Source: Desulfobacteraceae bacterium (lineage in GTDB: Bacteria; Desulfobacterota; Desulfobacteria; Desulfobacterales; JAIFKL01). Taken from it: 42,927 nt of DNA. The position numbers and the translations under genes are program-made. The DNA lies in assembly GCA_020049595.1 (NCBI GenBank), contig JAIFKL010000125.1, positions 1 to 42,927 of the forward strand. Direction: 5' to 3'. Of this stretch, positions 186 through 41,740 are shown in pieces (positions within the stretch are counted from its first letter, which is position 1; every line of letters starts with the position of its first letter). Under the pieces are notes generated by a model. It ran no database searches and had not been told where the DNA came from. It was given only the letters and a program-made list of their open reading frames with translations.

Positions 186-500
186 ATGGACATCCGAGGA
201 TAGCCCGGCCCCGGCTAAAATAGATATTGCCGGAGAGGGAGTTCATATCATTTACCAGTCCCGAAGGGACTTCTGAGAATAGCCCGGCAATTTATTGCCG
301 GGAAGATGGTAAACGGAGTTTTTTCCAAGTCCCGTAGGGACGACTGAGGACAATTCGGAGCGAAGCGTTTCAGCCGTCCCTACGGGACTTAAAAAAAATG
401 GGGGACCCGCTCTCATCCGGCAATAAATTGGCGGGCTATTTTCATAAGATCGCCCGCCAATAAATTGGCGGGCTATTTTCAGTCGTCCCTTCGGGACTAT
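186..500. repeat. Cluster of short palindromic word hairpins
   Basis: AGTCCCGAAGGGACT (257-271). CCCGGCAATTTATTGCCGGG (283-302). 18-bp inverted repeat AGTCCCGTAGGGACGACTG / CAGCCGTCCCTACGGGACT (328-389). Tandem copies of GCAATAAATTGGCGGGCTATTTTCA (417-483). Confidence 0.85.
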
Positions 501-545
501 TTCTCAATTCTCAATTCTCACTTCTCACTTCTCAATTTTCACTTA
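501..545. repeat. Heptamer array, single arm (TTCTCAA/TTCTCAC x6 on the + strand)
   Basis: Directly abuts the TAA stop of the minus-strand OMF gene. On the gene strand it reads TGAGAAT/TGAGAAG. Confidence 0.9.
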
Positions 546-1946
546 CTCCCCCCATCCGCCGCCGAGGGCTTTATACAATCGCACCAGATCGGCAGTAGTA
601 TTTCCCTTGCTTTCCGCCAACTGATCCTCAAGATTCAGCAGGGAACGCTGGGCTTCCAATACCGTGTCAAAATCCGCCAGACCGGCGGAATATTTATTTC
701 CGGCTAATTTGGAAGCTTCCTGCGCGGCGCGGGTTGCAGCCGTCAGGGTCTGTCCGCGCTGCTGTTCCGCAGCGTATGCCGTGAGCGCATTTTCTACTTC
801 CTCCAAAGCATTGAGAACCGATGATTCATAGCGGAGCAGCGCCTGTTCCGCTAACGCTGATTGCACTTCAATATTTTGTCGGATCGCGCCGGCGTCAAAA
901 ATGCGCCAACTCAGACGGGGACCGAAACTGTGGCTTCTGCTGTCCCCAGAAAACAGATCGCCTGATGAAAGCGCCTCCAATCCCACAGAGCCGTTCAAAG
1001 TGAATTTCGGGTAAAGCTCGGATTCAGCAACGCCGATGCGCGCGGTCTGCGCCGCCAGATTCCGTTCCGCCTGACGAATATCAGGTCTGCGCCGCAAAAG
1101 GTCAGCGGGAATCCCCACAGCGATGTTCACGGAAGGGACAGGCACGGGCTTGTTTTCTTTCAGAAGCGTGTGCAGCGCGCCCGGAGATTCTCCCAGCAGC
1201 ACGGCAAGACGGTTTTCAGCCGCTTCCAGACCGGCGTGCAGCGTGGGAATCCGGGAGCGCGTCTGTTCCAGATTGTATCGCGCCTGCTGAACAGCGAGTT
1301 CATCGCCCAGACCTGCCTGATAGCGCGAGCGGACAAGTCCGTGAGTTTCCAGTTGTGCGGCAAGATTGGCATTTGCCACCGAGATACGGTTCTGATAGAT
1401 GCGGACATCAATGTAGTTGAGTGCGACTTCTGCCAGAAGCGAGACCTGCACATCCCGCAAATTTTCCTGCTCGGATTCCAGATTTGCCTGCGCCGCTTCA
1501 ATGGAACGGCTGACGCCTCCGAAAATATCCAATTCCCAACTCGCATCCAAGCCGATGGTATAGGATTTATTCTCCGAGCCGTTGCTGTGCCGCGTGGTGA
1601 CAGCACCGGAAGCATCGGCACTCGGAAATCTGTCCGCATCGCTGATGCCTCTGCGGGCGCGTGCTTCCCGAATCCGGGCGAATGCGTTTTTAATATCGGA
1701 ATTGCCTGTGACAGCACGCTCAATCAGCCCGGATAAAACAGGATCATTGAGGGTTTTCCACCATTGCGCCAGCAATTCTGCTGTTTCGGTGCCGGAGGAC
1801 AGCGTGCTGTTCCATGCGGTCGGGGTTTGGGTTTGAGGTCGGGCATAATTCGGACCCACGACTGCACATCCGGCAATGCCGATGATTGTCGCAAAGCATA
1901 TCAGGACAAAAGCTGAATGCGGAAAGGATTTATTGAAAGGATTCAT
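543..1946 (-). CDS. Efflux outer-membrane factor lipoprotein (NodT family)
   Basis: 467-aa ORF. Lipoprotein signal ends IAGC. WWKTLNDPVLSGLIERAV motif and two OEP-type repeats. No MFP or RND pump gene lies beside it in the window. Confidence 0.9.
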   Translation of the reverse strand: MNPFNKSFPHSAFVLICFATIIGIAGCAVVGPNYARPQTQTPTAWNSTLSSGTETAELLAQWWKTLNDPVLSGLIERAVTGNSDIKNAFARIREARARRGISDADRFPSADASGAVTTRHSNGSENKSYTIGLDASWELDIFGGVSRSIEAAQANLESEQENLRDVQVSLLAEVALNYIDVRIYQNRISVANANLAAQLETHGLVRSRYQAGLGDELAVQQARYNLEQTRSRIPTLHAGLEAAENRLAVLLGESPGALHTLLKENKPVPVPSVNIAVGIPADLLRRRPDIRQAERNLAAQTARIGVAESELYPKFTLNGSVGLEALSSGDLFSGDSRSHSFGPRLSWRIFDAGAIRQNIEVQSALAEQALLRYESSVLNALEEVENALTAYAAEQQRGQTLTAATRAAQEASKLAGNKYSAGLADFDTVLEAQRSLLNLEDQLAESKGNTTADLVRLYKALGGGWGE

Positions 1947-2043
1947 GGGAGTTCCATATTGAAATATGAAAACAGAGATTGGAGAAACTAAGTTTTTTCA
2001 AAAAAACTTAGTTTCTTTTTCATTCTTCAATTCATGCTGTTTT

Positions 2044-2376
2044 TCATTTCGCCGACTGATTATAGAAAGGGACTTCATCGGCAGTGACAACGCAGTCTAT
2101 GTTCTTATCCAAGCGGGTAAAGCGTTCAATGATAACGCCGCCGGCAGAAGCGGTGTTTGCCGTATTGCCGGAGAGAGGAGTGGTGTCAACTTCCTGAAAA
2201 GAATTTCCGGTATTACCTGCATTCGCATTCGTGCCAGTGCTGTTTTCAATTCCCTGAACAACATTTCCCCCGGTTTCGGCAGGACTTGCCTGCTGGGCAA
2301 AACTGCAAGCCGTGAAAACAAACAGCACTGCCAATACAATCGCCGCAGCCGTCTTGAACCTCATGTCAAATTTCAT
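2044..2376 (-). CDS. Small secreted protein with an EF-hand-like Ca-binding loop
   Basis: Start moved from ORF-track 2424 to ATG 2376, which has GGAGGAG just upstream. Signal peptide AAIVLAVLFVFTACSFAQQ is paralogous to that of 2854-3348. C-terminal DKNIDCVVTADE loop. Confidence 0.6.
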   Translation of the reverse strand: MKFDMRFKTAAAIVLAVLFVFTACSFAQQASPAETGGNVVQGIENSTGTNANAGNTGNSFQEVDTTPLSGNTANTASAGGVIIERFTRLDKNIDCVVTADEVPFYNQSAK

Positions 2377-2507
2377 GCGCTTTCTCCTCCTTAAAAAAAT
2401 AAAAAATTGAAACTTGTCAGACAATCAACTTACAGGCAAATCTTATCACCAAAATTAAAAAATTGAAAGTTTTTCAGATAAGTTTTAACTTTTTTCTCTC
2501 TATCTAT

Positions 2508-2732
2508 CCGGAGTGCTGAAATCTGTTCTTAGCCCGGGCGCAGTGAAATTTCAGCTGTAGAACGGGTTTGAAACCCGTTTTACTGTGCTGTGCCGAAATG
2601 AGCGAAGCGACCGAATTTTATAAAATGGGTCAGCTGTAGAACGGGTTTGAAACCCGTTTTACTGTGCTGTGCCGAAATGAGCGAAGCGAATTTTAGCATT
2701 CTCAGCCTGGGCGCAGTGAAATTTTAGCATTT
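2508..2732. repeat. Composite word element containing a 79-bp-period tandem duplication
   Basis: CAGCTGTAGAACGGGTTTGAAACCCGTTTTACTGTGCTGTGCCGAAATGAGCGAAGCGA occurs at 2552-2610 and 2631-2689. It is flanked by GGAGTGCTGAAAT and AATTTTAGCA words. Confidence 0.85.
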
Positions 2733-3525: not shown

Positions 3526-3590
3526 AGGGCGGGCATTTTTCATGTCCGCCCTGCAACTATAGTAAGGCGGGCATGAAATGCCCACCTTAC
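3526..3590. repeat. Two adjacent hairpin words (GGGCGGGCAT and GTAAGGCGGGCAT families)
   Basis: AGGGCGGGCAT-TTTTC-ATGTCCGCCCT (3526-3552) and GTAAGGCGGGCAT-GAA-ATGCCCACCTTAC (3562-3590). Confidence 0.85.
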
Positions 3591-3606
3591 AAGGAACGAC
3601 CGCAGT

Positions 3607-4110: not shown

Positions 4111-4281
4111 TTTTCATATCCTCCCTTAAAATTGAAAATTGATGTTCTCCCGATCACATGATGCGTGAAAATAGCAGTTGATTGTGAAGAAAATATGAAG
4201 GAAATATGAGAAGGTTGTGAAGATTGATAAATTGCTTGAACTCGGAGGGAAAGAGTTTTATAGGATAAGAGTTAGAAGTGT

Positions 4282-4397
4282 TTTTTCGCCACGAATGGAC
4301 ACGAATTTATCACGAATAAAAGAACGCTAATTTATTCAGAATGATTAATTCGTGCTTTTTAATTTGTGATAAATCCGTGTCCATTCGTGGCGAAAAA
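4282..4397. repeat. 32-bp inverted repeat (CACGAAT word family) just upstream of the kinase gene
   Basis: TTTTTCGCCACGAATGGACACGAATTTATCAC (4282-4313) against GTGATAAATCCGTGTCCATTCGTGGCGAAAAA (4366-4397), with one mismatch. Confidence 0.85.
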
Positions 4398-4429
4398 TCC
4401 CCTGATTTTAAAATTTAAGGAAAATTCTC

Positions 4430-6007
4430 ATGCGGATCAAACTTTCATACAAAGTATTTGCGGCATTTCTGCTGACATCTCTGGTAAGCGTGATGCTGAT
4501 GATTGCAATCATCCATTATCATGCTTCACAGAACTTTGCGAATTATATCAATAAAGTCGAACTCGGCAAACTTGACAGGCTTATAAGCGAAGTAAGCAAG
4601 GAATACAGGAAACAGGGCGGATGGGACACACTGAAAAATAATCGGAGCCTGTGGGAGCGCATTTTGGATACATGCGATCTGAAACCCCGCCGGCACGATC
4701 AGCCGAGGCTTAAACATCCTTTTCCGCCGCCTCATCATATCGCGGATGAAGAATTTTTGAAACCGGAGCGCGCTTTGCGTCATGATATGTTTCCTGACGA
4801 GAACCGGGAGAATCCGGAACGCCGTCCGCCGCCTGATATGCCCCCGGATGATATGCCGCTGCCGAATGACAGAAACAGAGATGGAAATGGCTTGCCGCGG
4901 CACGAAGCTGTTTTCGGCATCGGTCCCCGTATTTCGCTTTTTGATGCACAAAAACAGCTTGTTGTCGGAAATCCTTTTATCAGCGACCAATTGCTGAAAG
5001 AAATCAGAATTGACGGAAAAATTGTCGGCCGGATAGGCTTGAAAAGAAGAAAACCCATGGCAAATCCGCTGGAAATCGCTTTTTTAAGACAGCAGTATGA
5101 ATTGTTTTATCTGACCGGCGGCATTATATTTATATTGACGGCGCTGGTTTCATTTTTTCTGTCAGGACATATTCTCAAGCCGGTCAGGAAATTGGCGCAG
5201 GGAACGCTGGCGCTGGCTTCCCGAAAATTTGAAACGCGTATCTGTGTTCGTTCATCGGATGAACTGGGGGAACTGGCTTCAAACTTCAACACCATGGCCC
5301 AGACCCTTGAAAAATATGAGCAGATGCAGAAACAGTGGATTTCCGACATTTCCCATGAATTAAGAACGCCGCTGTCCATTCTTCGCGGGGAACTTGAAGC
5401 CGCACAGGACGGCATTCGCGAACTGAATATGGAAACACTGGATTCTTTACATGACGAAGCGATTCATCTGTCTAAGATCGTTGAGGGGCTTCATCAGCTA
5501 TCGCTGGCGGACGCGGAAAGCGTTTCATTGAAAAAAGAAGCGGTTAATCCCCTGTCTGTTTTAAAAAAAACGCTTACACTTTTTCAAAGCCGCTTTGCAC
5601 AGCAGCAGATTTTGATTCAGCATGATCTTGATGCGGGGCAAAACATCATGCTCTCAGGGGATGGGGACCGTCTGATGCAGCTTTTTTCAAATCTGTTGGA
5701 AAATACATTGCGTTATACAAATTCTCCGGGTAAATTAAACATCTCCGGCCGCTGTGAACAGAATCATATACTGCTGAGTTTTGAAGATTCGGGTCCGGGT
5801 GTGCCGGAAGCATCGCTGGAACGCCTGTTTGACCGGCTGTACCGGGTGGATCCGTCAAGAAGCCGGGCAAAAGGGGGCAGCGGTCTGGGGCTGGCGATTT
5901 GCAAAAATATTGTGGAAACACACGGCGGAACCATTCGGGCTTTGAATGCGCCCGGCGGGGGGCTGCGGATTGAGATCATGTTTCCGCCGGCACCTCGCAG
6001 ACTGTAG
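4430..6007 (+). CDS. Sensor histidine kinase, BaeS/CpxA-like (TM, Pro-rich periplasmic loop, TM, HAMP, HisKA, HATPase)
   Basis: H-box SDISHELRTPLS. N, G1 and G2 boxes (LENTLRYT, DSGPGV, GGSGLGLAI). Two TM segments flank a Pro/Asp/Arg-rich loop. Confidence 0.9.
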   Translation: MRIKLSYKVFAAFLLTSLVSVMLMIAIIHYHASQNFANYINKVELGKLDRLISEVSKEYRKQGGWDTLKNNRSLWERILDTCDLKPRRHDQPRLKHPFPPPHHIADEEFLKPERALRHDMFPDENRENPERRPPPDMPPDDMPLPNDRNRDGNGLPRHEAVFGIGPRISLFDAQKQLVVGNPFISDQLLKEIRIDGKIVGRIGLKRRKPMANPLEIAFLRQQYELFYLTGGIIFILTALVSFFLSGHILKPVRKLAQGTLALASRKFETRICVRSSDELGELASNFNTMAQTLEKYEQMQKQWISDISHELRTPLSILRGELEAAQDGIRELNMETLDSLHDEAIHLSKIVEGLHQLSLADAESVSLKKEAVNPLSVLKKTLTLFQSRFAQQQILIQHDLDAGQNIMLSGDGDRLMQLFSNLLENTLRYTNSPGKLNISGRCEQNHILLSFEDSGPGVPEASLERLFDRLYRVDPSRSRAKGGSGLGLAICKNIVETHGGTIRALNAPGGGLRIEIMFPPAPRRL

Positions 6008-6030
6008 AACGGGTTTCAAACCCGTTTTAC
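6002..6030. repeat. GTAGAACGGGTTTCAAACCCGTTTTAC hairpin word overlapping the kinase stop codon
   Basis: The same word occurs at about 2556-2584 and 2635-2663. The TAG stop (6005-6007) of the kinase lies inside the word. Confidence 0.8.
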
Positions 6031-6056
6031 ATTTATGTCAACGCAGGAACAACATT

Positions 6057-6701: not shown

Positions 6702-6724
6702 TATTATAGGAGTTACGCAGTTCA

Positions 6725-6829
6725 GACCTCACCCCCCGGCCCCCCACCTCCCCCCCCGGCCCCCTCTCCGAAGGAGAGGGGGCGACTTCTGCTCCCCTCC
6801 CCTTCGGAGAGGGGGCCGGGGGTGGGGTC
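6725..6829. repeat. GC-rich nested palindrome (CCCCTCTCC-TTCG/GAAG-GGAGAGGGG word family)
   Basis: Outer inverted repeat GACCTCACCCCCCGGCCCCC / GGGGGCCGGGGGTGGGGTC. Inner hairpins GGCCCCCTCTCCGAAGGAGAGGGGGC and CCCCTCCCCTTCGGAGAGGGGG. Confidence 0.85.
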
Positions 6830-6938
6830 TCCGTTCCGTTCATAACGACATCGGAAAGTTAAATTGACAAAGTAAAATTAATTTATATTAAATTCACCTT
6901 ATGATTGACATTTTCTATCAATTCGGGCAAATTATTGG

Positions 6939-7008
6939 GAAGTGAGAATTGAGAATTGAGAAATCAACACTTCCTGTTTCTCAATTCTCAATTCTCAATT
7001 CTCAATTT
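6939..7008. repeat. Inverted heptamer pair (hairpin)
   Basis: (TGAGAAT)n at 6939-6963, loop TCAACACTTCCTG, (ATTCTCA)n at 6977-7008. Lies 20 nt upstream of the PrkA-like start. Confidence 0.9.
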
Positions 7009-7027
7009 ATCGGGAGTGTTAAAACTT

Positions 7028-9361: not shown

Positions 9362-9364
9362 CTG

Positions 9365-9503
9365 AGGATTCTCAGGACGCAGAAGATGAAGAATGGGAAT
9401 ATTTTATGCTGACGCCGCCTTAGTCCTGAGAATCCTTATAAAAAAAGGTCAGGGGTTCGGGGTCAGAGGTCAGGCGAACCCCTGACCCCTAACCACTGAC
9501 CCT
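9365..9503. repeat. Two hairpin words
   Basis: AGGATTCTCAGGAC (9365-9378) / GTCCTGAGAATCCT (9423-9436). GGTCAGGGGTTCG ... CGAACCCCTGACC (9447-9487) with further GGTCAG repeats. Confidence 0.8.
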
Positions 9504-9513
9504 TAATAACTAT

Positions 9514-10876: not shown

Positions 10877-10899
10877 AAAAAAAGCAGAAAGGAAAAAAA

Positions 10900-11373: not shown

Positions 11374-11790
11374 GTGAGAAGTGATACCAATTCGCTATCA
11401 AAAACAGTGTTCTCCGTATCTGTTTTAAGCCGGGCGCTTTTCAGGCGGTTTAAGCGATCTCCGTATCTGTTTTAAGCTTCGGCGCTTTTTAAGCGCCCGG
11501 CTAAAAATAGATGCGGTTTATCTGTTTTCAGCCGGGTGTTTTCAGCCGGGGGCGCTTTACGATCTGTTTTCCGTAAAACCGCTTTTCAAGCGGTTTAAGC
11601 GATTTGAAAAATCGCTTTACGATCTGAACTCTGTAAAACCGCTTTTTAAGCGGTTTAAGCGGTTTATCTGTTTTCAGCCGGGTGTTTTCAGCCGGGGGCG
11701 CTTTACGATCTGAATCTGTTTTAAGCCGGGCCGATCTTTGAAAGCGAATTGGTATCAGTCTGAGCCTGTCAAAGACTCAATTCTCACTTA
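11371..11790. repeat. About 420-bp nested composite palindromic element
   Basis: Outer single heptamer units (TAAGTGAGAAGTGA / TCAATTCTCACTTA). Next layer TACCAATTCGCTATCAAA (11385-11403) / TTTGAAAGCGAATTGGTA (11737-11754). The interior holds GTAAAACCGCTTTTNAAGCGGTTTAAGCG hairpins and a roughly 145-bp-period direct repeat (11515-11566 and 11660-11711). Confidence 0.85.
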
Positions 11791-11791
11791 T

Positions 11792-12778: not shown

Positions 12779-12844
12779 AACAAGTTGCAGGTAACAGGTT
12801 GCAAGATAACCTGTTACATGTTACCTGTTACATGTAACTTGTTT
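12779..12844. repeat. CAGGT-word palindrome between the siaB-like and siaC-like genes
   Basis: AACAAGTTGCAGGTAACAGGT ... ACCTGTTACATGTAACTTGTT. Confidence 0.8.
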
Positions 12845-13244: not shown

Positions 13245-13428
13245 ATTGAGAATTGAGAATTGAGAATTGAGAATTGAGAAAGGTTTCTCGCATCTATTTT
13301 TAGCCTTGGCGCAGAGATTGCAAAGTTTTTTTTATAAAAAGAGTTTTTCTTTGCGCCCTTTGCGCCAAGGCTAAAAATAGATGCGAGACATTATTTAGAA
13401 TTGACAATTCTCAATTCTCAATTCTCAA
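13245..13428. repeat. Three-layer nested palindrome capped by heptamer arms
   Basis: (TGAGAAT)5 at 13245-13281 / (ATTCTCA)3 at 13408-13428. Inner inverted repeat 13283-13312 / 13362-13389 (GGCTAAAAATAGATGCGAG word). Core CTTTGCGCCC word with a TTTTTATAAAAA centre. Confidence 0.9.
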
Positions 13429-16474: not shown

Positions 16475-16496
16475 TTATATGCTTATGCTGTTATTT

Positions 16497-16544
16497 GTTC
16501 AGCCACGATATTCGTGAACAATTCGTGTTCATTCGTGGCTGAAC
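16497..16544. repeat. CACGAA-word hairpin
   Basis: GTTCAGCCACGA ... TCGTGGCTGAAC, between gmk and rlmB. Confidence 0.8.
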
Positions 16545-16555
16545 AAAAAATACAA

Positions 16556-17164: not shown

Positions 17165-17489
17165 AAGTTTTTTCCCTCTCCTTCGGGGAGAACACAGAGG
17201 AGAGGCTTATCTGTTTTTTATCGCTGCGGGCATTCCTGTCAGTGTCTTTCAGCATTTCATATCGCTGTGATATGGTTTCTGCCTGAATTGCAGAGAGAAT
17301 CACATGGTTACTGTCTGTGATGATGATTGAGCGTGTTTTACGCCCGTGGGTGGCGTCCACCAGACGTTTTTCTTCTTTTGCCTCATCTTTCAGACGTTTC
17401 ATCGGCGCGGAATTGGGAGAAACAACGGCAACCACGCGCTCGGCAACCACCGTACCCCCGAAACCGATATTTAACAAACTTTGTTCCAT
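17130..17489 (-). CDS. remA: RemA/DUF370 family regulator with a roughly 30-aa C-terminal extension
   Basis: [29 protein letters not shown]...[29 protein letters not shown] matches the RemA family. The tail runs through a hairpin word and overlaps gmk. Confidence 0.8.
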
Positions 17490-18436: not shown

Positions 18437-18490
18437 TTTAAGACCTTGATTTATAGGATTAAAAGATTTTCATGATTAAAAATGTGCTGT

Positions 18491-22417: not shown

Positions 22418-25400
22418 ATGCGCTTTAAGAATCTGAAATTAGCGACAAAGCAGGGGCTTGCTTTCGGTTTTATCCTTGTGATCATGGCAGGCGTAACCGT
22501 TTTTTCCCTGCTGAAAATGTCCGCGCTCAAAGATGAGATTGACAGAGTGAATACCAAACGGCTGCCCGGAGTGATCGCTGTTTCCGAAATTAATTTCAAT
22601 ACTTCCGAGTACCGCATCAATGAAATGCAGCACGCACTGACCTATTACGGATACAAGATGCGGGAGCAGGAACAGATGATGCTGGGCCTCAAGACGAAAA
22701 TTGAAAAAAATCAGGAGGTTTATCAGCCGCTCATCACATCTCCCGAAGAACAGACGCTGTATTCCGAGTTTCAGGAAAAATGGGGGCGTTATTTAGAAAT
22801 GCACGAGCAGTTCATGAAACTTTCCCGTGACAGCAAAGACGAAGAAGCCCTTACGCTGCTCAATGAGGAAGCCTATAAACTGTTCAGAGATTTCAGCGCA
22901 AATCTGGAAGGGCTTGTCAAGCTGAACAAAGAAGCCTCGTTTGAAGCTGCACGCCGCGCCGAAGAGACCTACCGCTCCGCCCGCACGGTGACAACGGTGC
23001 TGCTGGCGATGACCGTACTGATGTCAACACTGATCACCCTGGTGCTGGTACGCACGATTACCATACCCATCCGGCAGTTGGAACGGGCTGCCAAAAGTGT
23101 TGCCGAGGGCAACGTCAATGTGAGTCTCGATATTCAGACACAGGAAGAAATCGGCAATCTGGCAAGATCATTCAACCGCATGACCGATTCACTCCGTGAG
23201 GCAAAACAGGAAAATGAAAAACAGGACTGGTTTAAGAGCGGTCAGAACGAACTGAATGAAAAAATGCGGGGAGATCAGGATGTGCAGACCCTTGCCCGCA
23301 ATGTGATTACCTGTCTGTCAAAATATCTGGGTGCGCAGATCGGCGCGCTGTATCTGGTTTCAGACGGGGAAAACGGGGAAAACACAGAAATGAAACTTGC
23401 CGGAACTTACGCCTTTGCCAAGCGCAAAAGTCTGGGCGACATCATCCGCATCGGCGAAGGATTGGCAGGGCAGGCGGCTTTTGAAAAGGAAATCATTTCT
23501 GTTACGGATGTTCCCCAAGACTACATCCGAATTGCCTCGGCAATCGGCGACACTCATCCCCGCAACATCATGGTTTCACCATTTTTGTATGAAGGCAGGT
23601 TGGTCGGTGTGGTCGAACTGGGAACTTTTGCGGAATTTACCGACAGGGAAATGGAGTTCCTGAAATATGCCATGGAAAATATTGCCATCGGCTTTAATTC
23701 TGCCCGGTCCCGGGACAAAATCGCCTTTCTCCTCAAGGAATCGCAGCGTCAGGGCTCAGAACTCAAGATTCAGCAGGAAGAACTCCGAGCCACCAATGAA
23801 GAACTGGCAGAGCAGCGGGACGCGCTCAGGCTGTCGGAAGCGCAGTTGAAATCCCAGCAGGAAGAGCTTCAGGCTGCCAATGAGGAATTGGAAGAAAAAA
23901 CCCAGTATCTGGAGAAACAGCAGATTGAGATTACCGAAAAGAATGTTGCGCTGGAAATTGCCCGGAATGACATTGAAAAGAAGGCAAAAGAATTGGAAGT
24001 GACCAGCAAATACAAATCCGAATTTCTTGCCAATATGTCTCATGAACTTCGCACGCCGCTCAACAGTATGCTCATTCTTGCCCGGAGTCTGGCGGACAAC
24101 AAAGAGGAAAATCTCAGCGAAGATCAGTCCGAATCTGCCCGGATTATTTACAAAAGCGGAAATGATCTGCTCAAACTCATCAATGAGATTCTGGACCTTT
24201 CCAAAATCGAAGCCGGCAAAATGTCGGTCAATATTGAAAAAGTTTTGCTCCAAGATGTTGCGGACAGCCTTCATGCCAATTTCAAGCATGTCATTGCCGA
24301 TAAGGGCTTGACGCTCGCTATCCGATTGGATGAGCATATCCCGGAATATATGGAAACCGACTCTCAGCGTTTGGAACAGATTATCAAAAATTTTATGTCC
24401 AATGCGATCAAGTTTACGGAAAAAGGCGAAATCACGTTTTCTGTTCACACACCTGAACCGGAGACCGATCTGTCCCGCAGCGGTCTGAATCGGCAGGATG
24501 CCATTGCCTTTTCGGTCAGCGATACGGGCATCGGTATTCCGGAAGACAAGCTTCTTGATATTTTTGAAGCGTTCCAGCAGGTTGACGGAAGCACTTCCCG
24601 GAAATACGGCGGCACCGGACTGGGGCTTTCCATTTCCCGTGAACTGGCAAAACTGCTGGGCGGTGAGATTCAGTTGAAAAGCGAAATGGGAAAGGGTTCG
24701 ACGTTTACACTCTATCTCCCCGGTTCAAGTAAGGTGGGCAGCTTGCTGCCCACCAAACAGAAAACCGCAGAGGTTCAGGCTTCGTGTAAGGCGGGCAGCG
24801 TTCGACTGAGCGCGGCAGTTGAGCCTGCCGAAACTCACGCCGAAGTCAAGCTGCCCGCCAAACAGAAAACCACAGAGGTTCAGGCTTCGGGTAAGGTGGG
24901 CAGCAAGCTGCCCACCCTACGGAAAATAACAGCCCCTGCCCCTTCACCCGGCGACAGGTGCATTCTGATTATCGAAGAGGATGCGGATTTTGTAAAGGTG
25001 CTGTCCGCGCAATGTTCGCAGAAAGGTTTCAAAGCGGTGGTATGTGCCAGCGGGGAGGAAGGATTGCAGTTGGCGGAAAAGCAGCGGCACGAGGCGATTA
25101 TTCTGGATATACGGCTTCCCGGCATGGATGGCTGGGCGGTTCTGGAGCGGCTCAAGGCAAATCCCGAAACCCGTCATATTCCGGTGCATATCATTTCGGC
25201 TGAGGAAGTCAGTCTTGATGCGCTCAAAAAAGGTGCCGTCGGTTTTCTCACAAAACCGGCTGAAAAAGAAGCTTTGGACGCGGCTTTCCGCAAACTCGAA
25301 AGCTTTATCGAGAAAAACATCAAAGACCTGCTGGTGGTGGAAGATGATGAAAACCTGCGGAAAAGCATCAGAAAACTGATCGGCAACGGCGATGTGAAAA

Positions 25401-26122
25401 TCACCGAAGCCGCCAGCGGCAAAGATGCGCTGGATGCCCTCCTGAACAGACAATTCGACTGTATGGTGCTGGACCTGGGGCTGCCGGATATGACCGGTTT
25501 TGAACTGCTCAGTATGCTGAAAAATGAAAAAGGAATCAATATCCCGCCGGTTATTGTCTATACAGGGAAAGACCTTAGCCGTGAAGAGGAAGAGCAACTG
25601 CGGGGCTATGCGGAGGCGATCATTGTCAAAGGTGTGAAATCCGAAGAACGCCTGCTGGATGAGACGACCCTGTTTCTGCATCGGATTGTCAGCAATATGC
25701 CGCAGAAAGAGCAGAAAGTTATATGCAACCTTCAGGATAAAGACAGCGTTTTCAAAAACAAGAGAATTCTTTTGGCAGACGACGACATGCGGAATGTCTT
25801 TGCCATGTCCAAAATTCTGCGGGAAAAAGGAATGGAGATAGTTAAAGCGGAAGACGGCGCGAAAGCATTGAAAGTGCTGGAACAGGAGCCGGGCATTCAT
25901 CTGGTGCTGATGGATATTATGATGCCGATCATGGACGGATATGAAACCATGAAAAAAATCCGGGAGCAGGAGCGATTTGCGAAACTGCCGATTATTGCCT
26001 TAACCGCAAAGGCAATGAAAGGCGACAGAGAAAAATGTATCGAATCGGGCGCAAGCGATTATCTGGCAAAACCCGTTGACATGGAAAGACTGCTGTCAAT
26101 GATGCGGGTGTGGATGTATTAA
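22418..26122 (+). CDS. Hybrid sensor histidine kinase (4HB_MCP-like sensor, HAMP, GAF, coiled coil, HisKA, HATPase, repeat-derived linker, three receiver domains)
   Basis: H-box ANMSHELRTPLNS. HATPase motifs DTGIGI and GGTGLGLSI. Three receivers (ILDIRLPGMDG, VLDLGLPDMTG, LMDIMMPIMDG). No Hpt domain. Confidence 0.9.
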   Translation: MRFKNLKLATKQGLAFGFILVIMAGVTVFSLLKMSALKDEIDRVNTKRLPGVIAVSEINFNTSEYRINEMQHALTYYGYKMREQEQMMLGLKTKIEKNQEVYQPLITSPEEQTLYSEFQEKWGRYLEMHEQFMKLSRDSKDEEALTLLNEEAYKLFRDFSANLEGLVKLNKEASFEAARRAEETYRSARTVTTVLLAMTVLMSTLITLVLVRTITIPIRQLERAAKSVAEGNVNVSLDIQTQEEIGNLARSFNRMTDSLREAKQENEKQDWFKSGQNELNEKMRGDQDVQTLARNVITCLSKYLGAQIGALYLVSDGENGENTEMKLAGTYAFAKRKSLGDIIRIGEGLAGQAAFEKEIISVTDVPQDYIRIASAIGDTHPRNIMVSPFLYEGRLVGVVELGTFAEFTDREMEFLKYAMENIAIGFNSARSRDKIAFLLKESQRQGSELKIQQEELRATNEELAEQRDALRLSEAQLKSQQEELQAANEELEEKTQYLEKQQIEITEKNVALEIARNDIEKKAKELEVTSKYKSEFLANMSHELRTPLNSMLILARSLADNKEENLSEDQSESARIIYKSGNDLLKLINEILDLSKIEAGKMSVNIEKVLLQDVADSLHANFKHVIADKGLTLAIRLDEHIPEYMETDSQRLEQIIKNFMSNAIKFTEKGEITFSVHTPEPETDLSRSGLNRQDAIAFSVSDTGIGIPEDKLLDIFEAFQQVDGSTSRKYGGTGLGLSISRELAKLLGGEIQLKSEMGKGSTFTLYLPGSSKVGSLLPTKQKTAEVQASCKAGSVRLSAAVEPAETHAEVKLPAKQKTTEVQASGKVGSKLPTLRKITAPAPSPGDRCILIIEEDADFVKVLSAQCSQKGFKAVVCASGEEGLQLAEKQRHEAIILDIRLPGMDGWAVLERLKANPETRHIPVHIISAEEVSLDALKKGAVGFLTKPAEKEALDAAFRKLESFIEKNIKDLLVVEDDENLRKSIRKLIGNGDVKITEAASGKDALDALLNRQFDCMVLDLGLPDMTGFELLSMLKNEKGINIPPVIVYTGKDLSREEEEQLRGYAEAIIVKGVKSEERLLDETTLFLHRIVSNMPQKEQKVICNLQDKDSVFKNKRILLADDDMRNVFAMSKILREKGMEIVKAEDGAKALKVLEQEPGIHLVLMDIMMPIMDGYETMKKIREQERFAKLPIIALTAKAMKGDREKCIESGASDYLAKPVDMERLLSMMRVWMY
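24729..24920. repeat. Word-type palindromic/direct-repeat element inside the hybrid kinase ORF
   Basis: GGTGGGCAGC-TT-GCTGCCCACC (24733-24754). GGTGGGCAGC-AA-GCTGCCCACC (24894-24915). Direct repeat CAAACAGAAAACCRCAGAGGTTCAGGCTTCGKGTAAGGYGGGCAGC occurs twice. GGCGGGCAGC / GCTGCCCGCC inverted repeat. This is the same GTAAGGYGGGCA word seen at 3562-3590. Confidence 0.8.
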
Positions 26123-26189
26123 TTGAGAATTGAGAATTGAGAATTAAACACTGTCTATTTCTCAATTCTCAATTCTCAATTCTCAATTT
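26120..26189. repeat. Inverted heptamer pair (hairpin) between the hybrid kinase gene and cheR
   Basis: The TAA stop overlaps the first unit. (TGAGAAT)3, loop AAACACTGTCTA, (ATTCTCA)4. The cheR ATG follows 2 nt later. Confidence 0.9.
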
Positions 26190-26191
26190 TT

Positions 26192-27016: not shown

Positions 27017-27080
27017 ACCTCTCCCCACGACACCCCCTCTCCTTCGGAGAGGGGGCCGGGGGGTGAGGTGCGGGTGAGGC
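27016..27080. repeat. CCCCCTCTCCTTCGGAGAGGGGG hairpin word between cheR and cheB
   Basis: Same word family as 6725-6829. Confidence 0.85.
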
Positions 27081-30079: not shown

Positions 30080-30162
30080 GTTGCAGGTTACAGGTTGCAG
30101 GTTGCAGGTAGCAGGTTACATGCTACATGCAACTTGTAACCTGCTACCTGCTACCTGCTACC
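30080..30162. repeat. CAGGT-word palindrome upstream of ilvE
   Basis: GTTGCAGGTTACAGGTTGCAGGTTGCAGGTAGCAGGTTACATG ... CATGCAACTTGTAACCTGCTACCTGCTACCTGCTACC. Confidence 0.85.
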
Positions 30163-30189
30163 AATTGACAATGAAGGAGAGATAAAAAA

Positions 30190-31254
30190 ATGCAAATCAC
30201 GATTACAAAAGCAAAAGACCTCAAACCCAAGCCGGATGAATCCAATCTCGGTTTCGGAACATTTTTTACAGATCACATGCTGCTGATGGATTACAATCCG
30301 GACAAGGGATGGCATCTGCCCCGTATTGAACCGTTTTCCCCTTTTGAAATGTCCCCTGCGACCATGGTTCTGCACTACGGACAGGCAGTATTTGAAGGGC
30401 TGAAGGCATATCGGACTGCTGCCGGCAAAATACAGCTTTTTCGGCCCAAAGCCAATTTTGCGCGCATGAACCGTTCCTGTGAGATGCTTTGCATTCCCCC
30501 GATTGACGAATCGCTTCTCACGGCTTCGCTGAAAGACCTGCTGAAGCTTGAAAAAGACTGGGTTCCCAGAGTCCCGGGCACCTCTCTTTATATACGTCCC
30601 ACGATTATTTCAACCGATCCCTATCTCGGAGTGCGGGCGTCGAAAACCTATCGTTATTTTGTCATTCTCTGTCCTGTGGGCGCATATTATGCCGCAGGCT
30701 TCAACCCTGTGAAAATATGGGTGACAAAAAATTATGTCAGGGCAGTTCGCGGGGGCATCGGCGAGGCAAAAACCCCGGCAAACTATGCGGCAAGCCTGTA
30801 CGCCGGAGAAAGGGCAGGCAAAAACGGTTATGCTCAGGTTTTGTGGTTGGACGGCGTGGAACAGAAATATGTGGAAGAAGTGGGTTCCATGAATATCTTT
30901 TTTGTCATTGACAATGAACTCGTCACGCCAATGCTCAACGGCAGCATTCTTCCGGGCGTTACACGGGATTCCGTCATTGCGCTGGCAAAACACTGGAAGC
31001 TGAAAGTTTCGGAGCGGAAAATCAGCATTGACGAAGTGATGAATGCTCATGACGCGGGAAAACTTCAGGAAGTTTTCGGATCCGGCACCGCGGCGGTGAT
31101 TTCGCCGGTAGGCGAGATGAAATACGGGGACCGGATCATCCAAATCGGCGGCGGCAAGGTCGGTCCCGTAGCGAACAAATTTTTCAAATCTATTCAGGAT
31201 ATTCAGTACGGCAAAGCTGAAGATCCCATGGGATGGATTGAGCCGGTTTGTTAG
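30190..31254 (+). CDS. ilvE: Branched-chain amino acid aminotransferase
   Basis: 354 aa. LGFGTFFTDHM, HYGQAVFEGLKAYR, AKTPANYAASL and EVGSMNIFF motifs. Confidence 0.9.
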   Translation: MQITITKAKDLKPKPDESNLGFGTFFTDHMLLMDYNPDKGWHLPRIEPFSPFEMSPATMVLHYGQAVFEGLKAYRTAAGKIQLFRPKANFARMNRSCEMLCIPPIDESLLTASLKDLLKLEKDWVPRVPGTSLYIRPTIISTDPYLGVRASKTYRYFVILCPVGAYYAAGFNPVKIWVTKNYVRAVRGGIGEAKTPANYAASLYAGERAGKNGYAQVLWLDGVEQKYVEEVGSMNIFFVIDNELVTPMLNGSILPGVTRDSVIALAKHWKLKVSERKISIDEVMNAHDAGKLQEVFGSGTAAVISPVGEMKYGDRIIQIGGGKVGPVANKFFKSIQDIQYGKAEDPMGWIEPVC

Positions 31255-31320
31255 AATTGAGAATTGAGAATTGAGAAATACCGTTTTTAATAAGATGGCT
31301 CAATTCTCAATTCTCACTTA
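31253..31320. repeat. Inverted heptamer pair with the conserved centre CCGTTTTTAATAAGATGGC
   Basis: It abuts the ilvE TAG stop. The centre is nearly identical to that of 15624-15644. Confidence 0.9.
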
Positions 31321-35553: not shown

Positions 35554-35648
35554 CTCTCGCAAAGGGCGCAAAGTTCGCAAAGAGAGACAAAGAGACAAAT
35601 ATTTTTTATAAAAAAGCTTTTCTTTGCGCCCTTCGCGTCTTTGCGAGA
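35554..35648. repeat. CGCAAAG-word palindrome with a TTTTTATAAAAA centre
   Basis: CTCTCGCAAAGGGCGCAAAG ... CTTTGCGCCCTTCGCGTCTTTGCGAGA. Same core as in 13311-13362. Confidence 0.85.
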
Positions 35649-35661
35649 AAAAATGCGCTTC

Positions 35662-35950
35662 AAAAAAAGGAGATATTTTGAATCAGGAACAAGTAGAAAA
35701 ATCAAAATCTGTATTGGTCGAAAACACATTTAAAATAATGCGTCAGGTTCATGAAGACACGATACGGATATTGGAGAATCTGGGCGCCGGCTTTATATTT
35801 CCGAGGGAATCTGAAGAACGCAAAAAAGGAGATATTTTGAATCAGGAACAAGTAGAAAAATCAAAATCTGTACTGGGTGAAAACACAGTTAAGATGCTGC
35901 GTCAGGTTCATGAAGACGCGATATGGATACTGGGGAATCTGGGCGTCGGC
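35662..35950. repeat. 159-bp-period tandem duplication of the RBS, start and first ~40 codons of the MttB-like gene
   Basis: 35662-35791 against 35821-35950. The first ~50 nt are identical, including AAGGAGATATTTTG. After that there are roughly a dozen substitutions. The period is a multiple of 3. Confidence 0.9.
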
Positions 35951-37051: not shown

Positions 37052-37273
37052 CGAGTCGGGAGTTGAAACACGAGTTGATATAAACGAAGTTTTAATCTTT
37101 AACTTTCAACTTATTACTTTTTGAAATATCAAAGTTTTTTCAGATATTCCTTGAATTCGGCTTCAAAAAATGCTACTAAGTTTGAAAATATGGCAGTCAT
37201 GCAGACATAGTGACAAAATTTTATCCCTGTCATTCACCCGGACCCTAATACGGATTCGCTTTCAAACAGCGAT

Positions 37274-37451
37274 GTAGGGCGGACAAAGCGAAGCGTGTCC
37301 GCCATGCAATGCTGAAATGCTAAAATTTCGCCTGGCGGCTCATTTCAGCACTCCGCTTCGGAACTTTCCGGAGTGCTGAAATGAGCGAAGCGAAATTTTA
37401 GCACTGCACCGATACTGGCATGGCGGACATGCTGCGCTTTGTCCGCCCTAC
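37274..37451. repeat. Three-layer nested palindrome
   Basis: 34-bp inverted repeat 37274-37307 / 37418-37451 with 2 mismatches. Inner GCTGAAATGCTAAAATTTCGC / GCGAAATTTTAGCACTGC. Innermost GCTCATTTCAGCACTCCG / CGGAGTGCTGAAATGAGC (37338-37386). Confidence 0.9.
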
Positions 37452-38467: not shown

Positions 38468-38569
38468 GGAACACGAAAGCACGAACATCTTATTTCAATC
38501 AGGAATGAAAAACACGGAAAATCATGTTAATCCTTTAATCCTTTAATCAAAATCGTGTTTTCGTGTTCC
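38468..38569. repeat. CACGAAA-word hairpin
   Basis: GGAACACGAAAGCACGAA / TCGTGTTTTCGTGTTCC. Confidence 0.8.
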
Positions 38570-38589
38570 CAAATTAAGGAAAAATATAG

Positions 38590-40723: not shown

Positions 40724-40744
40724 GCATGGGGGATGTCTCACTCT

Positions 40745-40850
40745 CCCTTTGAAGGGGGGGCAGGGGGGATGTTTCCGCTCAGGGAGGATATTTTGCCACG
40801 GACACTTAACCTGCCTTACAGAAACACCCCCCTGCCCCCCTCGAGGGGGG
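40745..40850. repeat. G-rich/C-rich inverted repeat
   Basis: GGGGGGCAGGGGGG (about 40755) against CCCCCCTGCCCCCC (about 40827), plus a CCCCCCTCGAGGGGGG palindrome. Confidence 0.75.
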
Positions 40851-40893
40851 ATTTTTTCGGTGATAAAATTAAAATTTAAAGGAGGTCAGAAAG

Positions 40894-41253
40894 ATGCAGT
40901 GTGAGAGATGTCAAACCCATATCGCCGCAGGAGAAGAAAAAGAACTTCACGGGCGTACCTTATGCGAGGATTGCTACATGGATGTGCTTTCTCCTGCCCG
41001 CGCCTGTGACCCCTGGGCGGTTCACAGCGCCAAGTCTTTTGAAAAAAGCGGAGGCGCGGTGTCTGAAGTAAATGAGACACAGGCAAAAATTCTCCGAATT
41101 TTGAAAGAAACCGGCGGGATATCGCCGGGTGAACTGGCAGAAAAACTTCAAATCAGACTGTCAGACCTTGAAAGAGAATTTGCCTCGCTTCGGCATACAG
41201 AGAAAATAAGAGCCGAACTTCGGGACGGAAAGAAAATTCTCCTGTTGTGGTAA
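40894..41253 (+). CDS. Zinc-ribbon plus winged-helix small protein (hypothetical regulator)
   Basis: CERC...CEDC N-terminus. C-terminal QAKILRILKETGGISPGELAEKL is wHTH-like. AAAGGAGG RBS. Confidence 0.6.
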   Translation: MQCERCQTHIAAGEEKELHGRTLCEDCYMDVLSPARACDPWAVHSAKSFEKSGGAVSEVNETQAKILRILKETGGISPGELAEKLQIRLSDLEREFASLRHTEKIRAELRDGKKILLLW

Positions 41254-41500
41254 CAGCATGAAAACCTTGACACCCGGAAAGACATGCCCCGCCTCTGTTT
41301 CCCTTCAATGCCTTCTCATTGAATTATTTGTATTTTATTATTCTTATCTCAGATTCAGACTTATGACTCAGGATTTAAAGTTTTACTTTGCCAGCTTGAC
41401 TTTCCGGTGTTATTGCAGAATGCCGGGGCTGAAAACAGAATCTGTTTCAGCCGGGCCGTTTTACTGACTGAACGGAGTGAAGAATCTCTTTCAGGGATTA

Positions 41501-41740
41501 TACCAATTCGCTATCAAAGATCGGTCTTTTCAGACCGTAAATCGCCCCGGCTTAAAACACCCGGCTGAAAATAGATAAACCGCTTAAACCGCTTGAAAAG
41601 CGGTTTTACGGAGATCGCTCAAACCGTAAAGCGATTTTTCAAATCGCTTAAACCGCTTAAAAAGCGGTTTTACGGAAAACACCGTTTTTGAAAGCGGTTT
41701 TACGGAGAACACCGTTTTTGAAAGCGAATCGGGATTACCC
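41501..41740. repeat. Composite word element related (partly in reverse complement) to 11371-11790
   Basis: Starts with TACCAATTCGCTATCAAA. Contains CGTAAAGCGATTTTTCAAATCGCTTAAACCGCTTAAAAAGCGGTTTTACGG, which is the near-exact reverse complement of about 11570-11620. Ends with TTTGAAAGCGAATCGGGATTA. Confidence 0.85.

Follow-up and report, generated by a model that had tools for sequence, protein, structure and literature searches.

Gene content, host and related loci

The DNA analysed here (the window) is the whole of contig JAIFKL010000125.1, 42,927 nt long. The subject of this study is its intergenic DNA, which consists mostly of a small vocabulary of recurring hairpin-forming sequences (hereafter words). 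The words lie among about 35 ordinary genes. These include the genes of an OEP protein, EF-hand proteins, a kinase/regulator pair, PrkA and a SiaABC-like set, together with rlmB-gmk-remA-yicC, a hybrid kinase with cheR, cheB and a PP2C regulator, BCAT and MlaD.

By its YicC relatives, the host was placed as an uncultured Desulfonema-like mat bacterium (Desulfococcaceae/Desulfobacterales). Matches to the window DNA were confined to DNA runs from microbial mats, and the BCAT protein had its sole match on a mat-metagenome contig of the Joint Genome Institute (JGI). YicC of the window is 88% and 86% identical to YicC of two syntenic contigs, L002 (NCBI metagenome-assembled genome (MAG) GCA_975759245.1) and L004 (JGI contig), respectively. 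Identity is 65–70% to YicC of Desulfobacteraceae IS3, Desulfobacterales HSG2, Desulfococcaceae HSG8 and Desulfonema ishimotonii (L006, BEXT01000001.1). The HSG genomes were derived from large filamentous bacteria of sulphidic sediments (PMC11920609).

Over-representation, folding and copy number of the words

Stretches of 12 nt shared between different spacers covered 23.6% of the intergenic bases of the window, whereas they covered 3.1% of non-overlapping pieces of coding DNA and 1.2% of shuffled spacers. For shared 14-mers, the values were 16.4% in spacers, 0.5% in coding DNA and 0.2% after shuffling. The z score of the minimum free energy of folding was below -3 in 25 of the 29 spacers (median -7.0); length-matched coding controls had a median of 0.07 and none fell below -3. 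To estimate copy number outside the window, the depth of Logan contigs from four mat metagenomes was compared with that of single-copy flanks. Depth rose from about 5–22 in the flanks of 37244-37465 to 265–12,700 over the words (70–560x). It reached 110–440x that of single-copy flanks over 2538-2705 and 3–10x over other words.

The same vocabulary was found in 118 metagenome loci (960 kb, 46.6% GC, mostly from one whole-genome shotgun project). These loci are related to the window yet distinct from it, with just one match to it, at 79% identity. Nearly all window words occur in them, most at tens to 146 per Mb (range 1–146; expected <0.01). Locally inverted 8-mers account for 28% of the bases in the 480 spacers of these loci, whereas the figure is 4% for shuffled and for coding DNA. 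It is 22% for divergent spacers, and 28% for spacers between co-directional or convergent genes.

The central claim of the original prediction, that the intergenic DNA is mostly written in a small set of recurring hairpin words, is thus borne out by the 12-mer and 14-mer coverage and by the folding scores. That prediction depended on the words being over-represented beyond the window, and they are, as the depth jumps in all four metagenomes show. The fourteen word families that it listed were all recovered at or near their places by a regular-expression check and by inspection of the spacers; the copies at 213, 27676, 37228, 37248 and 40745 are one- or two-base variants. Its wording that nearly every spacer is made of such words corresponds to 25 of 29 by the folding scores; the largest spacers (19274-19774, 21891-22417 and 41254-41831) also carry much unique sequence. 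Two of its sites lie within genes rather than in spacers: 24729-24920 is in frame inside the hybrid histidine kinase gene and 17173 is in the 3′ tail of the remA open reading frame (ORF). The vocabulary had also been judged well beyond repetitive extragenic palindromic (REP) sequences and bacterial interspersed mosaic elements (BIMEs). This is correct for density only; part of the vocabulary resembles ordinary REP/BIME sequences, since it consists of 25–35-nt imperfect palindromes headed by GTAG, in hundreds of copies and in mosaic tandem clusters. Finally, the words had been presented as a list without levels, whereas they form a hierarchy, with tandem-heptamer arms outside and other words nested in the loops; the list had also overlooked the GAGAAKT family, the 7-nt periodicity, the fixed orientation of the arms and the in-frame copies in genes.

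Hairpins with tandem heptamer arms

Tandem arrays were counted when they held at least three perfect copies, and periods of 4 to 15 nt were compared. In the window, all 11 such arrays have period 7. In the 960 kb of related loci, 84 arrays have period 7 and at most 13 have any other given period. The units that form hairpin arms are GAGAAKT, CACGAAW, CAGGTWR, CGCAAAG and GGTCAGR; several of the words listed earlier are themselves heptamer arrays (CACGAAA, CAGGTTG) or arrays of 8–9-nt units (CGCAAAGnn). The commonest family is GAGAATT/GAGAAGT (at 501, 6940, 11374, 13245, 15591, 17505, 18490, 26121 and 31253).

The arrays are mostly paired into the two arms of a hairpin, nearly always in the order purine-rich array, loop, pyrimidine-rich array, and on both strands. 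The ratio of purine-first to reverse arrangements was 55:1 for GAGAAKT, 22:6 for CACGAA, 66:20 for CGCAAAG, 8:0 for CAGGT, 9:0 for GGTCAG and 2:0 for CACAGAG; for GAGAAKT in other phyla, it was 12:1. The bias is a real asymmetry, because either arrangement would form a hairpin. Some cases in the minority orientation are probably neighbouring hairpins lying side by side. Two broader rules were tried and rejected. A purine-rich 5′ arm is not a property of all hairpins (the overall bias is only 57–65% and the CCCCTCTCC family is pyrimidine-first), and the rule is limited to the array-armed families. Stop codons always in the 5′ arm are true of GAGAAKT and of some CAGGTAA/CAGGTGA arrays, and untrue of CACGAAA, CGCAAAG, GGTCAGG and CACAGAG.

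About half of the GAGAAKT arrays are hairpin arms, with 2–15 units each and frequently of unequal length. The motif AACAC/GTGTT occurs in 18 of 37 short GAGAAKT loops, usually as WTRAACACTTCCTAT and in either orientation (chance about 2%), and the copies at 6940-7008 and 26121-26189 are 91% identical, loop included. The conserved loop core and these near-identical copies indicate that GAGAAKT copies share descent. When units of the two arms are paired, their variable bases are complementary in 67% of the pairs, compared with 49% under the null. In certain hairpins, each arm is homogeneous for variants that do not pair, which points to arm-wise homogenisation by slippage.

The position of these hairpins is also regular. 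In 32 cases, the 3′ end of a GAGAAKT hairpin lies 14–30 nt upstream of a start codon preceded by a Shine-Dalgarno sequence. The upstream ORF ends close to the 5′ arm, its stop codon lying at -16 to +8 nt from it, and roughly every second one of these ORFs is terminated by the TGA of the array itself, which offers this codon in each of the three frames. Both the rlmB-like gene and the DUF4416 gene of the window terminate inside arrays. The hairpin at 6940..7010 stops 18 nt short of the prkA ATG (7029) and leaves the Shine-Dalgarno sequence GGGAG free.

Such geometry would be expected if the hairpins were functional cis-elements under selection at their present sites, for example attenuators, terminators acting in both directions, processing sites of RNase III or RNase E, or arrays bound by an RNA- or ssDNA-binding protein that reads heptamers. 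The small vocabulary would then stem from convergent selection and local slippage and not from mobility. The purine-first order across six unrelated array families, its recurrence in other phyla (12:1) and the excess of complementary variable bases (67% against 49%) speak for this explanation, and heptamer repeats near starts have been proposed to be regulatory in Beggiatoaceae and Nostoc (PMC4679880; bioRxiv 10.1101/2022.06.06.494920). However, one-third of the unit pairs are mismatched, some arms are homogeneous for a non-pairing variant, near-identical composites with a conserved non-palindromic loop recur at unlinked loci, and the words reach hundreds of copies per genome-equivalent. Hairpins are carried by divergent spacers too, and no significant strand-specific folding advantage was left after control for composition. 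On balance, selection in place is considered an unlikely account of the words.

REP-like, MITE-like and Acido-Lenti-1 layers

The REP-like words are imperfect palindromes of 25–35 nt. Those of the types GTAGAACGGGTTT.AAACCCGTTTTAC, GTAGGGCGGACA.. and GTAGGGTGGGCGG.. start with GTAG, as do GTAGAACGGG.. at 2556, 2635 and 6004, GTAGGGCGGACA at 37274 and GTAGGGTGGGCGG at L002 3908; other words start with GTAA. GTAGAACGGGTTTSAAACCCGTTYTAC and related words are short, extragenic, multicopy palindromes, present in more than 118 metagenome loci and at a depth of 110–440x. Sub-families keep the flanks and differ on both sides of the stem (CGGGTT/AACCCG, CGAGTT/AACTCG, CGATTT/AAATCG), i.e. by compensating changes. 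Mosaic clusters of the BIME type are present as well, such as the 79-nt double unit at 2551-2689.

In related contigs (L184, L136, L154, L193, L202), tandem clusters hold up to nine REP-like units, separated by linkers of 11–12 nt or by a second hairpin word. Within the 27-nt unit arrays at L184 1170-1442, L202 12805-13031 and L136 1190-1522, the linkers alternate between two versions. The likeness to an array of clustered regularly interspaced short palindromic repeats (CRISPR) is superficial, and this identity was rejected: the linkers, at 11–12 nt, are too short and are themselves repeated, and the window holds no cas genes.

Two larger units resemble miniature inverted-repeat transposable elements (MITEs). 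They are 370 nt (11385-11754) and 234 nt (41501-41734) long and are bounded by inverted copies of TACCAATTCGCTATCAAA, i.e. terminal inverted repeats (TIRs). Solo copies of TACCAATTCGCTATCAAA lie at 21891 and 37248.

Two full-length matches to the Rfam family Acido-Lenti-1 (RF01687; gathering score 37) were obtained, at 453-498 (+; 51.4 bits) and 257-302 (-; 41.7 bits), and only these two window copies reach the threshold. Base changes in stem 1 are compensated, and the linker is conserved. Acido-Lenti-1 may belong with the REP-like repeats instead of being an independent small RNA gene. Other Rfam families were discarded, as their many weak miRNA-precursor matches merely reflect long hairpins.

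Nesting, turnover and copies inside genes

Words are nested in one another. REP-like 27-mers were found within GAGAAKT loops, and REP words are inserted beside the conserved loop core of GAGAAKT hairpins at L180 14122 and L172 1231. In the gmk-rlmB spacer, alignment showed that the CACGAA outer arms are common to the window, L002 and L004, and that the loops of L002 and L004 hold 150–200 nt of extra words. The hairpin at 13245..13428 has GAGAATT as its outermost layer, GCATCTATTTTTAGCCTTGGCGCA and its complement (the GCATCTATTTTTAGCC.. pair) in the middle and CGCAAAG/CTTTGCG innermost.

Spacer contents differ between close relatives. The siaC-rubrerythrin spacer measures 418 nt in the window, where it holds a MITE-like unit in GAGAAGT arms; in L004 it is 56 nt long with a plain GAGAATT hairpin and in L002 it consists of 791 nt of other words. 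The yicC-remA spacer carries GAGAATT in the window, GAGAAGT in L002 and CACGAAA in L004, and no hairpin in D. ishimotonii. One arm of the CAGGTWR hairpin between the siaB- and siaC-like genes has grown to eight copies in L004. A strain in metagenome run X4 is devoid of exactly one hairpin (3521-3566), and its flanks show only scattered substitutions. Such differences of whole words between strains count against selection in place, although a hairpin was retained in the yicC-remA spacer while its word differed.

Some words reside inside genes. The 204-nt composite of the hybrid kinase forms an in-frame linker between the HATPase and the first receiver domain (-109 kcal/mol, z -8.4). The L002 kinase orthologue is about 90% identical on either side of this linker and has a different composite there, with G-rich heptamer arms and GTCA..CTGAGCGGAGCGAAG words inside. 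RemA, which carries a word in its tail, has 119 amino acids in the window and 91 in D. ishimotonii. The N-terminal region of SiaA also holds words. A REP-like hairpin, GTAAAACGAGTT-TTC-AACTCGTTTTGA, was seen within the SiaA-like N-terminal part at 15311-15340 of the window and at 13318-13345 of L002. Such in-frame copies inside proteins are a further point against cis-elements selected in place.

The hairpins might also be a mutational by-product, in which slippage makes the heptamers and template switching or fold-back makes the palindromes, or purine repeats are added to both 3′ ends of a break and the ends are joined, with neither transposition nor function. Arms that are unequal in copy number and independently homogenised would be expected from this, as would the arm expanded to eight copies in L004 and period-7 arrays of the same unit in many phyla. 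A head-to-head junction of two 3′-extended ends would give exactly the purine-first order. This explanation is nevertheless decidedly unlikely: the loop core is conserved among copies at unlinked loci and in different genomes, the REP-like words end at defined points and exist in hundreds of nearly identical copies, and the insertions in loops are discrete and word-sized.

A chimeric metagenome contig joined through repeats is hardly credible. Short-read assemblies do break at the words, and Logan contigs end at 37132-37300 and at about 2536-2600. However, the gene order is conserved with two independent assemblies, the architecture recurs in the NCBI MAG, JGI contigs and the complete chromosome of D. 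magnum, and single-hairpin spacers of 65–80 nt lie between conserved genes.

Distribution of the vocabulary

The syntenic L002 and L004 loci have spacers filled with like kinds of words. Within 8 kb of D. magnum DNA, one hairpin of GAGAATT and one of (GGTGTTA)n/(TAACACC)n were found. None of the window vocabulary was found across the 20-kb syntenic locus of D. ishimotonii. Downstream of rlmB, this locus has about 14 tandem 100-bp hairpin units (L006 12600-14000); the unit consists of CGGAGTGCAAAAG...TTTTCGCACTCCG around GCCCCGAAGGGGC and CCGGCCTTCGGCCTC, and its outer arms resemble the GGAGTGCTGAAAT word of the window. G-rich heptamer arms, e.g. (GGGGTTC)n, were noted at L002 3020-3087, 6075-6375 and 18264-18363, where a G-quadruplex on one strand is possible. 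A G-quadruplex-forming repeat is enriched in Nostoc and Xanthomonas (PMC4692102).

The array (GAGAATT)3 was found in more than 118 places and in at least eight phyla. Among its hosts are Cyanobacteria, with marine filamentous forms, as well as Acidobacteria, Chloroflexota, Bacteroidota, Clostridia and Planctomycetota. (GAGAATT)n is present in Caldora, Okeania, Symploca, Microcoleus and Phormidium, and also in gut Bacteroidales. The (GAGAATT)3 loci elsewhere often abut a start codon and have other heptamer arrays nearby, and the units GAAAATT and GAGAATG recur. A viral origin was rejected, as no GAGAATT hairpin was found in viral contigs (IMG/VR).

It is unlikely, but conceivable, that the array-armed hairpins form an undescribed class of elements: a bidirectional intercistronic cassette, (purine heptamer)n-loop-(pyrimidine heptamer)n, with its orientation set by mechanism and its machinery shared across mat-dwelling bacteria. 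It could act as a register-tolerant 'zipper' attenuator or processing site, in which the 3′ arm would form a weak RNA:DNA hybrid and the 5′ arm would often stop all three frames. Alternatively, it could be made by an enzyme that extends the 3′ ends of DNA with purine-rich heptamers. If so, a shared machinery that reads or makes heptamers would be expected, because (GAGAATT)n crosses phyla and is purine-first where paired (12:1).

Proposed mechanism

The favoured reading, to which a probability of about 0.6 was assigned, is that the words are selfish, non-autonomous hairpin repeats that insert into loops and are prone to slippage, that they are co-transcribed with the neighbouring genes, and that they are tolerated or used as intercistronic RNA structures. 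This reading starts from the observed repetition, hairpins, over-representation, sharing within the lineage, turnover, nesting, in-frame residence and rules of orientation and position; to these it adds a putative mobilising enzyme, presumed transcription and a possible role at the RNA level.

Three layers are proposed. The first comprises array-armed hairpins with 7–9-nt units, which take up the space from a stop codon to the Shine-Dalgarno sequence that follows, often with the TGA of the array as that stop. The second comprises REP/BIME-like units, at about 10^2 copies per genome, which are found alone, in inverted doublets or in mosaic tandem clusters, and the third the larger TIR-bounded, MITE-like composites. 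New words would enter chiefly at the loops of existing hairpins, so that palindromes grow from the centre. The copy number of an arm would shift by replication slippage, with homogenisation arm by arm, and whole words would be gained and lost between strains. The GTAG-headed words may be mobilised by a RAYT-like single-strand transposase (RAYT, REP-associated tyrosine transposase) encoded elsewhere in the genome.

For words between co-directional genes 65–150 nt apart, co-transcription is what we infer, as the natural reading of the gene arrangement, and the elements would almost certainly be present in operon mRNAs as stable stem-loops. There they would be tolerated and probably used, as a barrier to 3′ exonucleases, a processing site of the RNase III type or a partial terminator. 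The last of these would fit the pyrimidine-rich 3′ arm, which would give a weak RNA:DNA hybrid, and the hairpin could form in several registers. The purine-first rule would fit equally well with the joining of two 3′ ends extended with purine-rich repeats.

Several results weigh against this reading. As had been noted from the sequence, no RAYT/TnpA-type gene is present in the window, and no other transposase was found among its proteins either. A search of 4946 ORFs, taken from word-bearing loci that total about 1 Mb, likewise yielded none, whether by phmmer with the E. coli RayT sequence or by the HUH...Y..NP motif. No target-site duplication was recognised at the four ends of the MITE-like units. 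The words were also considered, and rejected, as intrinsic terminators: U-tracts are mostly missing, and most words, including the AU-rich GAGAATT stems, went undetected. Consensus terminator-like sites were only marginally in excess (36 vs 25.7±6.1 and 30 vs 22.7±5.4 in shuffles). The sense strand folds 2.0 kcal/mol more stably than the antisense strand (p = 0.003), while same-composition shuffles give 1.4; the residual after composition control was -0.6 kcal/mol (p = 0.09). In unrelated phyla, (GAGAATT)n occurs mostly as single direct arrays adjoining genes, and heptamer arrays may have an origin or role independent of a lineage-specific mobile element.

Relation to known repeat systems

GTAG is reportedly a hallmark of REP sequences, a view that goes back to Nunvar in 2010 and Messing in 2012. 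The present words share with REPs, BIMEs and the REPIN-RAYT system (REPINs, REP doublets forming hairpins) their nature as extragenic 25–35-nt palindromes, the GTAG heads, at least 10^2 copies, inverted doublets, mosaic clusters and the placement after stop codons within operons. They differ in that no RAYT was found in the window or the related loci searched, that there are more families per genome, that nearly all spacers are occupied, that much of the material consists of array-armed hairpins with 7-nt periodicity, which are not known from classical REPs, and that some copies lie in frame within genes.

The small dispersed repeats (SDRs) of Nostoc, ascribed to work of Elhai and colleagues from 2008, are said to be 21–27-nt hairpin words that are nested and embedded in heptamer arrays, in a filamentous, gliding, mat-forming host. 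SDRs and the short tandemly repeated repetitive (STRR) sequences of cyanobacteria resemble the window in their heptamer arrays in spacers, their nested hairpin words, a fold that is shared without shared sequence and a host of this filamentous, gliding, mat-forming kind. Nested, dispersed hairpins of the SDR kind are found here as 27-mers in GAGAAKT loops, as the layers at 13245-13428 and 11374-11791 and as loop insertions, and tandem heptamers in non-coding DNA as in STRRs. However, the host belongs to Desulfobacterota rather than Cyanobacteria and the units are not those of STRRs; the likeness seen is one of architecture. The arms here are mostly inverted and purine-first, whereas the sampled cyanobacterial loci carry mostly single direct arrays. 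SDRs were named as possible relatives in the REPIN paper (PMC3116915).

Direct repeats of the intergenic heptamer TAACTGA have been described in marine Beggiatoaceae, Cyanobacteria and Bacteroidetes (MacGregor 2015, PMC4679880). They too form intergenic arrays near starts, with stops in three frames in one direction and a patchy cross-phylum spread among filamentous bacteria of mats and sediments. The heptamers differ, and TAACTGA repeats are nearly all direct (1 inverted case in 170 sets; PMC4679880), whereas about half of the GAGAAKT arrays are hairpin arms. That paper (PMC4679880) makes no mention of Deltaproteobacteria or Desulfonema, and no paper treating Desulfonema together with heptamers was found in a literature search. 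Acido-Lenti-1 was described as a candidate small RNA of Acidobacteria and Lentisphaerae (Weinberg et al. 2010, PMC2864571). In the present Desulfobacterota genome, it is one member of a dispersed repeat vocabulary and is clustered with related hairpins.

MITE-like units share with MITEs their 230–370-nt, non-coding, TIR-bounded form, and the hairpins in a protein linker (kinase) and tail (RemA) recall in-frame palindromic elements. The units differ from MITEs in that neither target-site duplications nor a related autonomous insertion sequence were seen and in that their interiors are mosaics of smaller words. Correia/NEMIS elements and Rickettsia palindromic elements are known examples of MITEs and in-frame palindromic elements.

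As a whole, the system is an extreme relative, among bacteria, of REP/BIME elements and of the heptamer repeats and SDRs of cyanobacteria. The ingredients are familiar, and the array-armed hairpin with its rules of orientation and position, the saturation of spacers and the occurrence in Desulfobacterota appear to be undescribed. Heptamer repeats have been known from cyanobacteria since 1990 and from Beggiatoaceae since 2015, and there is no consensus on their function or origin. In this clade they can be read easily, being paired, subject to an orientation rule, fixed in position between stop and ribosome-binding site and rapidly turned over between close relatives. As D. magnum is cultured, has a complete genome and carries like hairpins, the role and spread of heptamer arrays could be tested experimentally. 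For annotation, the words lengthen or shorten ORF calls (prkA, siaA, MTTB-like), break short-read assemblies, reside in frame within proteins and match at least one Rfam 'sRNA' (small RNA) family.

Positions of the features and minor observations

Table 1. Positions of words, arrays and composites in the window.
Position	Strand	Feature	Sequence and context
257..498		Two-hairpin unit cluster	GTCCC-NNN-GGGAC + CCGGCAA/CCCGCCAA-TTTA-TTGCCGG/TTGGCGGG; linker GGCTATTTTCA
257-302	-	Acido-Lenti-1 match	Rfam
328-389		Longer GTCCC-armed hairpin	Within the 257..498 cluster
453-498	+	Acido-Lenti-1 match	Rfam
501..542	-	One-armed array	(GAGAAKT)x6; directly past the stop of the OEP/TolC-like gene
1981..2018		AGAAACTAAGTTTTT hairpin	15-17 bp stem; word also in L002 and L004 spacers; depth about 10x flanks
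2506..2730		Composite	Outer arms GGAGTGCTGAAAT / ATTTTAGCA around two 79-nt tandem units
within 2506..2730		79-nt unit	REP-like GTAGAACGGGTTTGAAACCCGTTTTAC + CCGAAATGAGCGAAGCG
3526..3591		Two adjacent GC-rich hairpins	GGGCGGGCA..TGTCCGCCC and GTAAGGCGGGCAT..ATGCCCACCTTAC
4276..4402		CACGAAT-repeat-armed hairpin	CACGAATGGACACGAATTTATCACGAAT ... ATTCGTG..GTGTCCATTCGTG; divergent spacer
6003..6031		Single REP-like word	GTAGAACGGGTTTCAAACCCGTTTTAC; between histidine kinase stop and response regulator start
6706..6835		TAGGAGTTACGC word, then C-rich/G-rich composite hairpin	Two CCCCTCTCC-NNN-GGAGAGGGG units; pyrimidine arm first
6940..7010		GAGAATT hairpin	(GAGAATT)n - loop ATCAACACTTCCTGT - (AATTCTC)n
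9362..9506		Two hairpins past prkA	CTGAGGATTCTCAGGAC..GTCCTGAGAATCCTTA; G-rich heptamer hairpin (GGTCAGG/GGTTCGG ... CCTGACC); both orthologous in L004
10687..10880		Two side-by-side CACGAAA-repeat-armed hairpins	Orthologous in L004
11374..11791		Nested composite	Outer GAGAAGT / AATTCTC arms around the 370-nt unit
within 11374..11791		370-nt MITE-like unit	Inverted TACCAATTCGCTATCAAA at 11385-11402 and 11737-11754; filled with GTAAAACCGCTT, AAGCGATTT and GGCTAAAAATAGAT hairpins
12779..12843		CAGGTWR heptamer-armed hairpin	Between siaB-like and siaC-like genes; also in L002 and L004
13245..13428		Three-layer nested hairpin	-98 kcal/mol, z -21.7; orthologous in L004
15591..15739		GAGAAGT hairpin	87-nt loop; provides the rlmB-like last codons + TGA; falsely lengthens the SiaA ORF N-terminus
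16489..16548		CACGA-armed hairpin	Between gmk and rlmB
17165..17195		CCCTCTCC-TTC-GGGGAGA word	Inside the 3′ tail of the remA ORF
17505..17556		GAGAATT hairpin	Fills the yicC-remA spacer
18490..18531	-	One-armed array	(GAGAAKT)x6; codes the last residues + stop of the DUF4416 gene
19531..19677		Nested hairpin	Outer TAGGAGTTACGC / GCGTAACTCCTA; inner CGCAAAG(NN) vs CTTTGCG repeats; divergent spacer
22047-22131		Hairpin	GTCATTCTGA...TCAGAATGAC
22208-22240		Word	GCTAAAATTTCATTTTAGCACTCCG
24722..24925	+	204-nt composite hairpin	GTAAGGTGGGCAG-type words; in-frame hybrid-kinase linker
26121..26191		GAGAATT hairpin	23-bp stem; fills the kinase-cheR spacer
27017..27075		CCCCCTCTCC-TTC-GGAGAGGGGG hairpin	C-rich/G-rich flanks; between cheR and cheB
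30080..30165		CAGGTTG/CAGGTAG heptamer-armed hairpin	5-6 copies per arm
31253..31320		GAGAATT hairpin	ATACCGTTTTTAATAAGATGGC loop
33175..33345		Composite	CGCAGAG-type arm ... CTTTGCG array; encloses two GTAAAGCGATTTT-NAA-AATCGCTCTAC REP-like units + GGCTGAAAATAGAT word
35554..35662		CGCAAAG-array hairpin	3′ arm misread as the start of the MTTB-like ORF
37245..37412		Solo word, GTAG-headed hairpin and inverted doublet	Solo TACGGATTCGCTTTCAAA; GTAGGGCGGACA..TGTCCGCC (37274-37306); inverted GGAGTGCTGAAATGAGCGAAGCGAAATTTTAGC doublet (37311-37412)
38468..38577		CACGAAA-armed hairpin	Long loop
40740..40872		Long G-rich/C-rich hairpin	GGGGGGGCAGGGGGG ... CCCCCCTGCCCCCC
41497..41740		Second MITE-like unit	TACCAATTCGCTATCAAA + degenerate inverted copy as ends; AAACCGCTT and AAGCGATTT hairpins inside

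A low-GC island (26% vs 45%) lies at 19775-21890, between the Trm112-like/DUF4416 genes and the hybrid kinase, with word-rich spacers on both sides. It encodes a D12 N6-adenine DNA methyltransferase and a PLD-like nuclease. As L002 has only about 400 nt at this position, it looks like an inserted restriction-modification island. At 35663-35960, the MTTB-like ORF opens with a 159-nt tandem duplication, in two copies that are 87–90% identical. Its true start probably lies further downstream than the annotated one, which sits in the 3′ arm of the CGCAAAG hairpin. Two paralogous EF-hand genes are present at 2044-2424 (-) and 2854-3354 (-), and the longer one has an internal 180-nt duplication. The ORFs 1966-2394 and 2869-3456, on the strand opposite to the EF-hand genes, are spurious.

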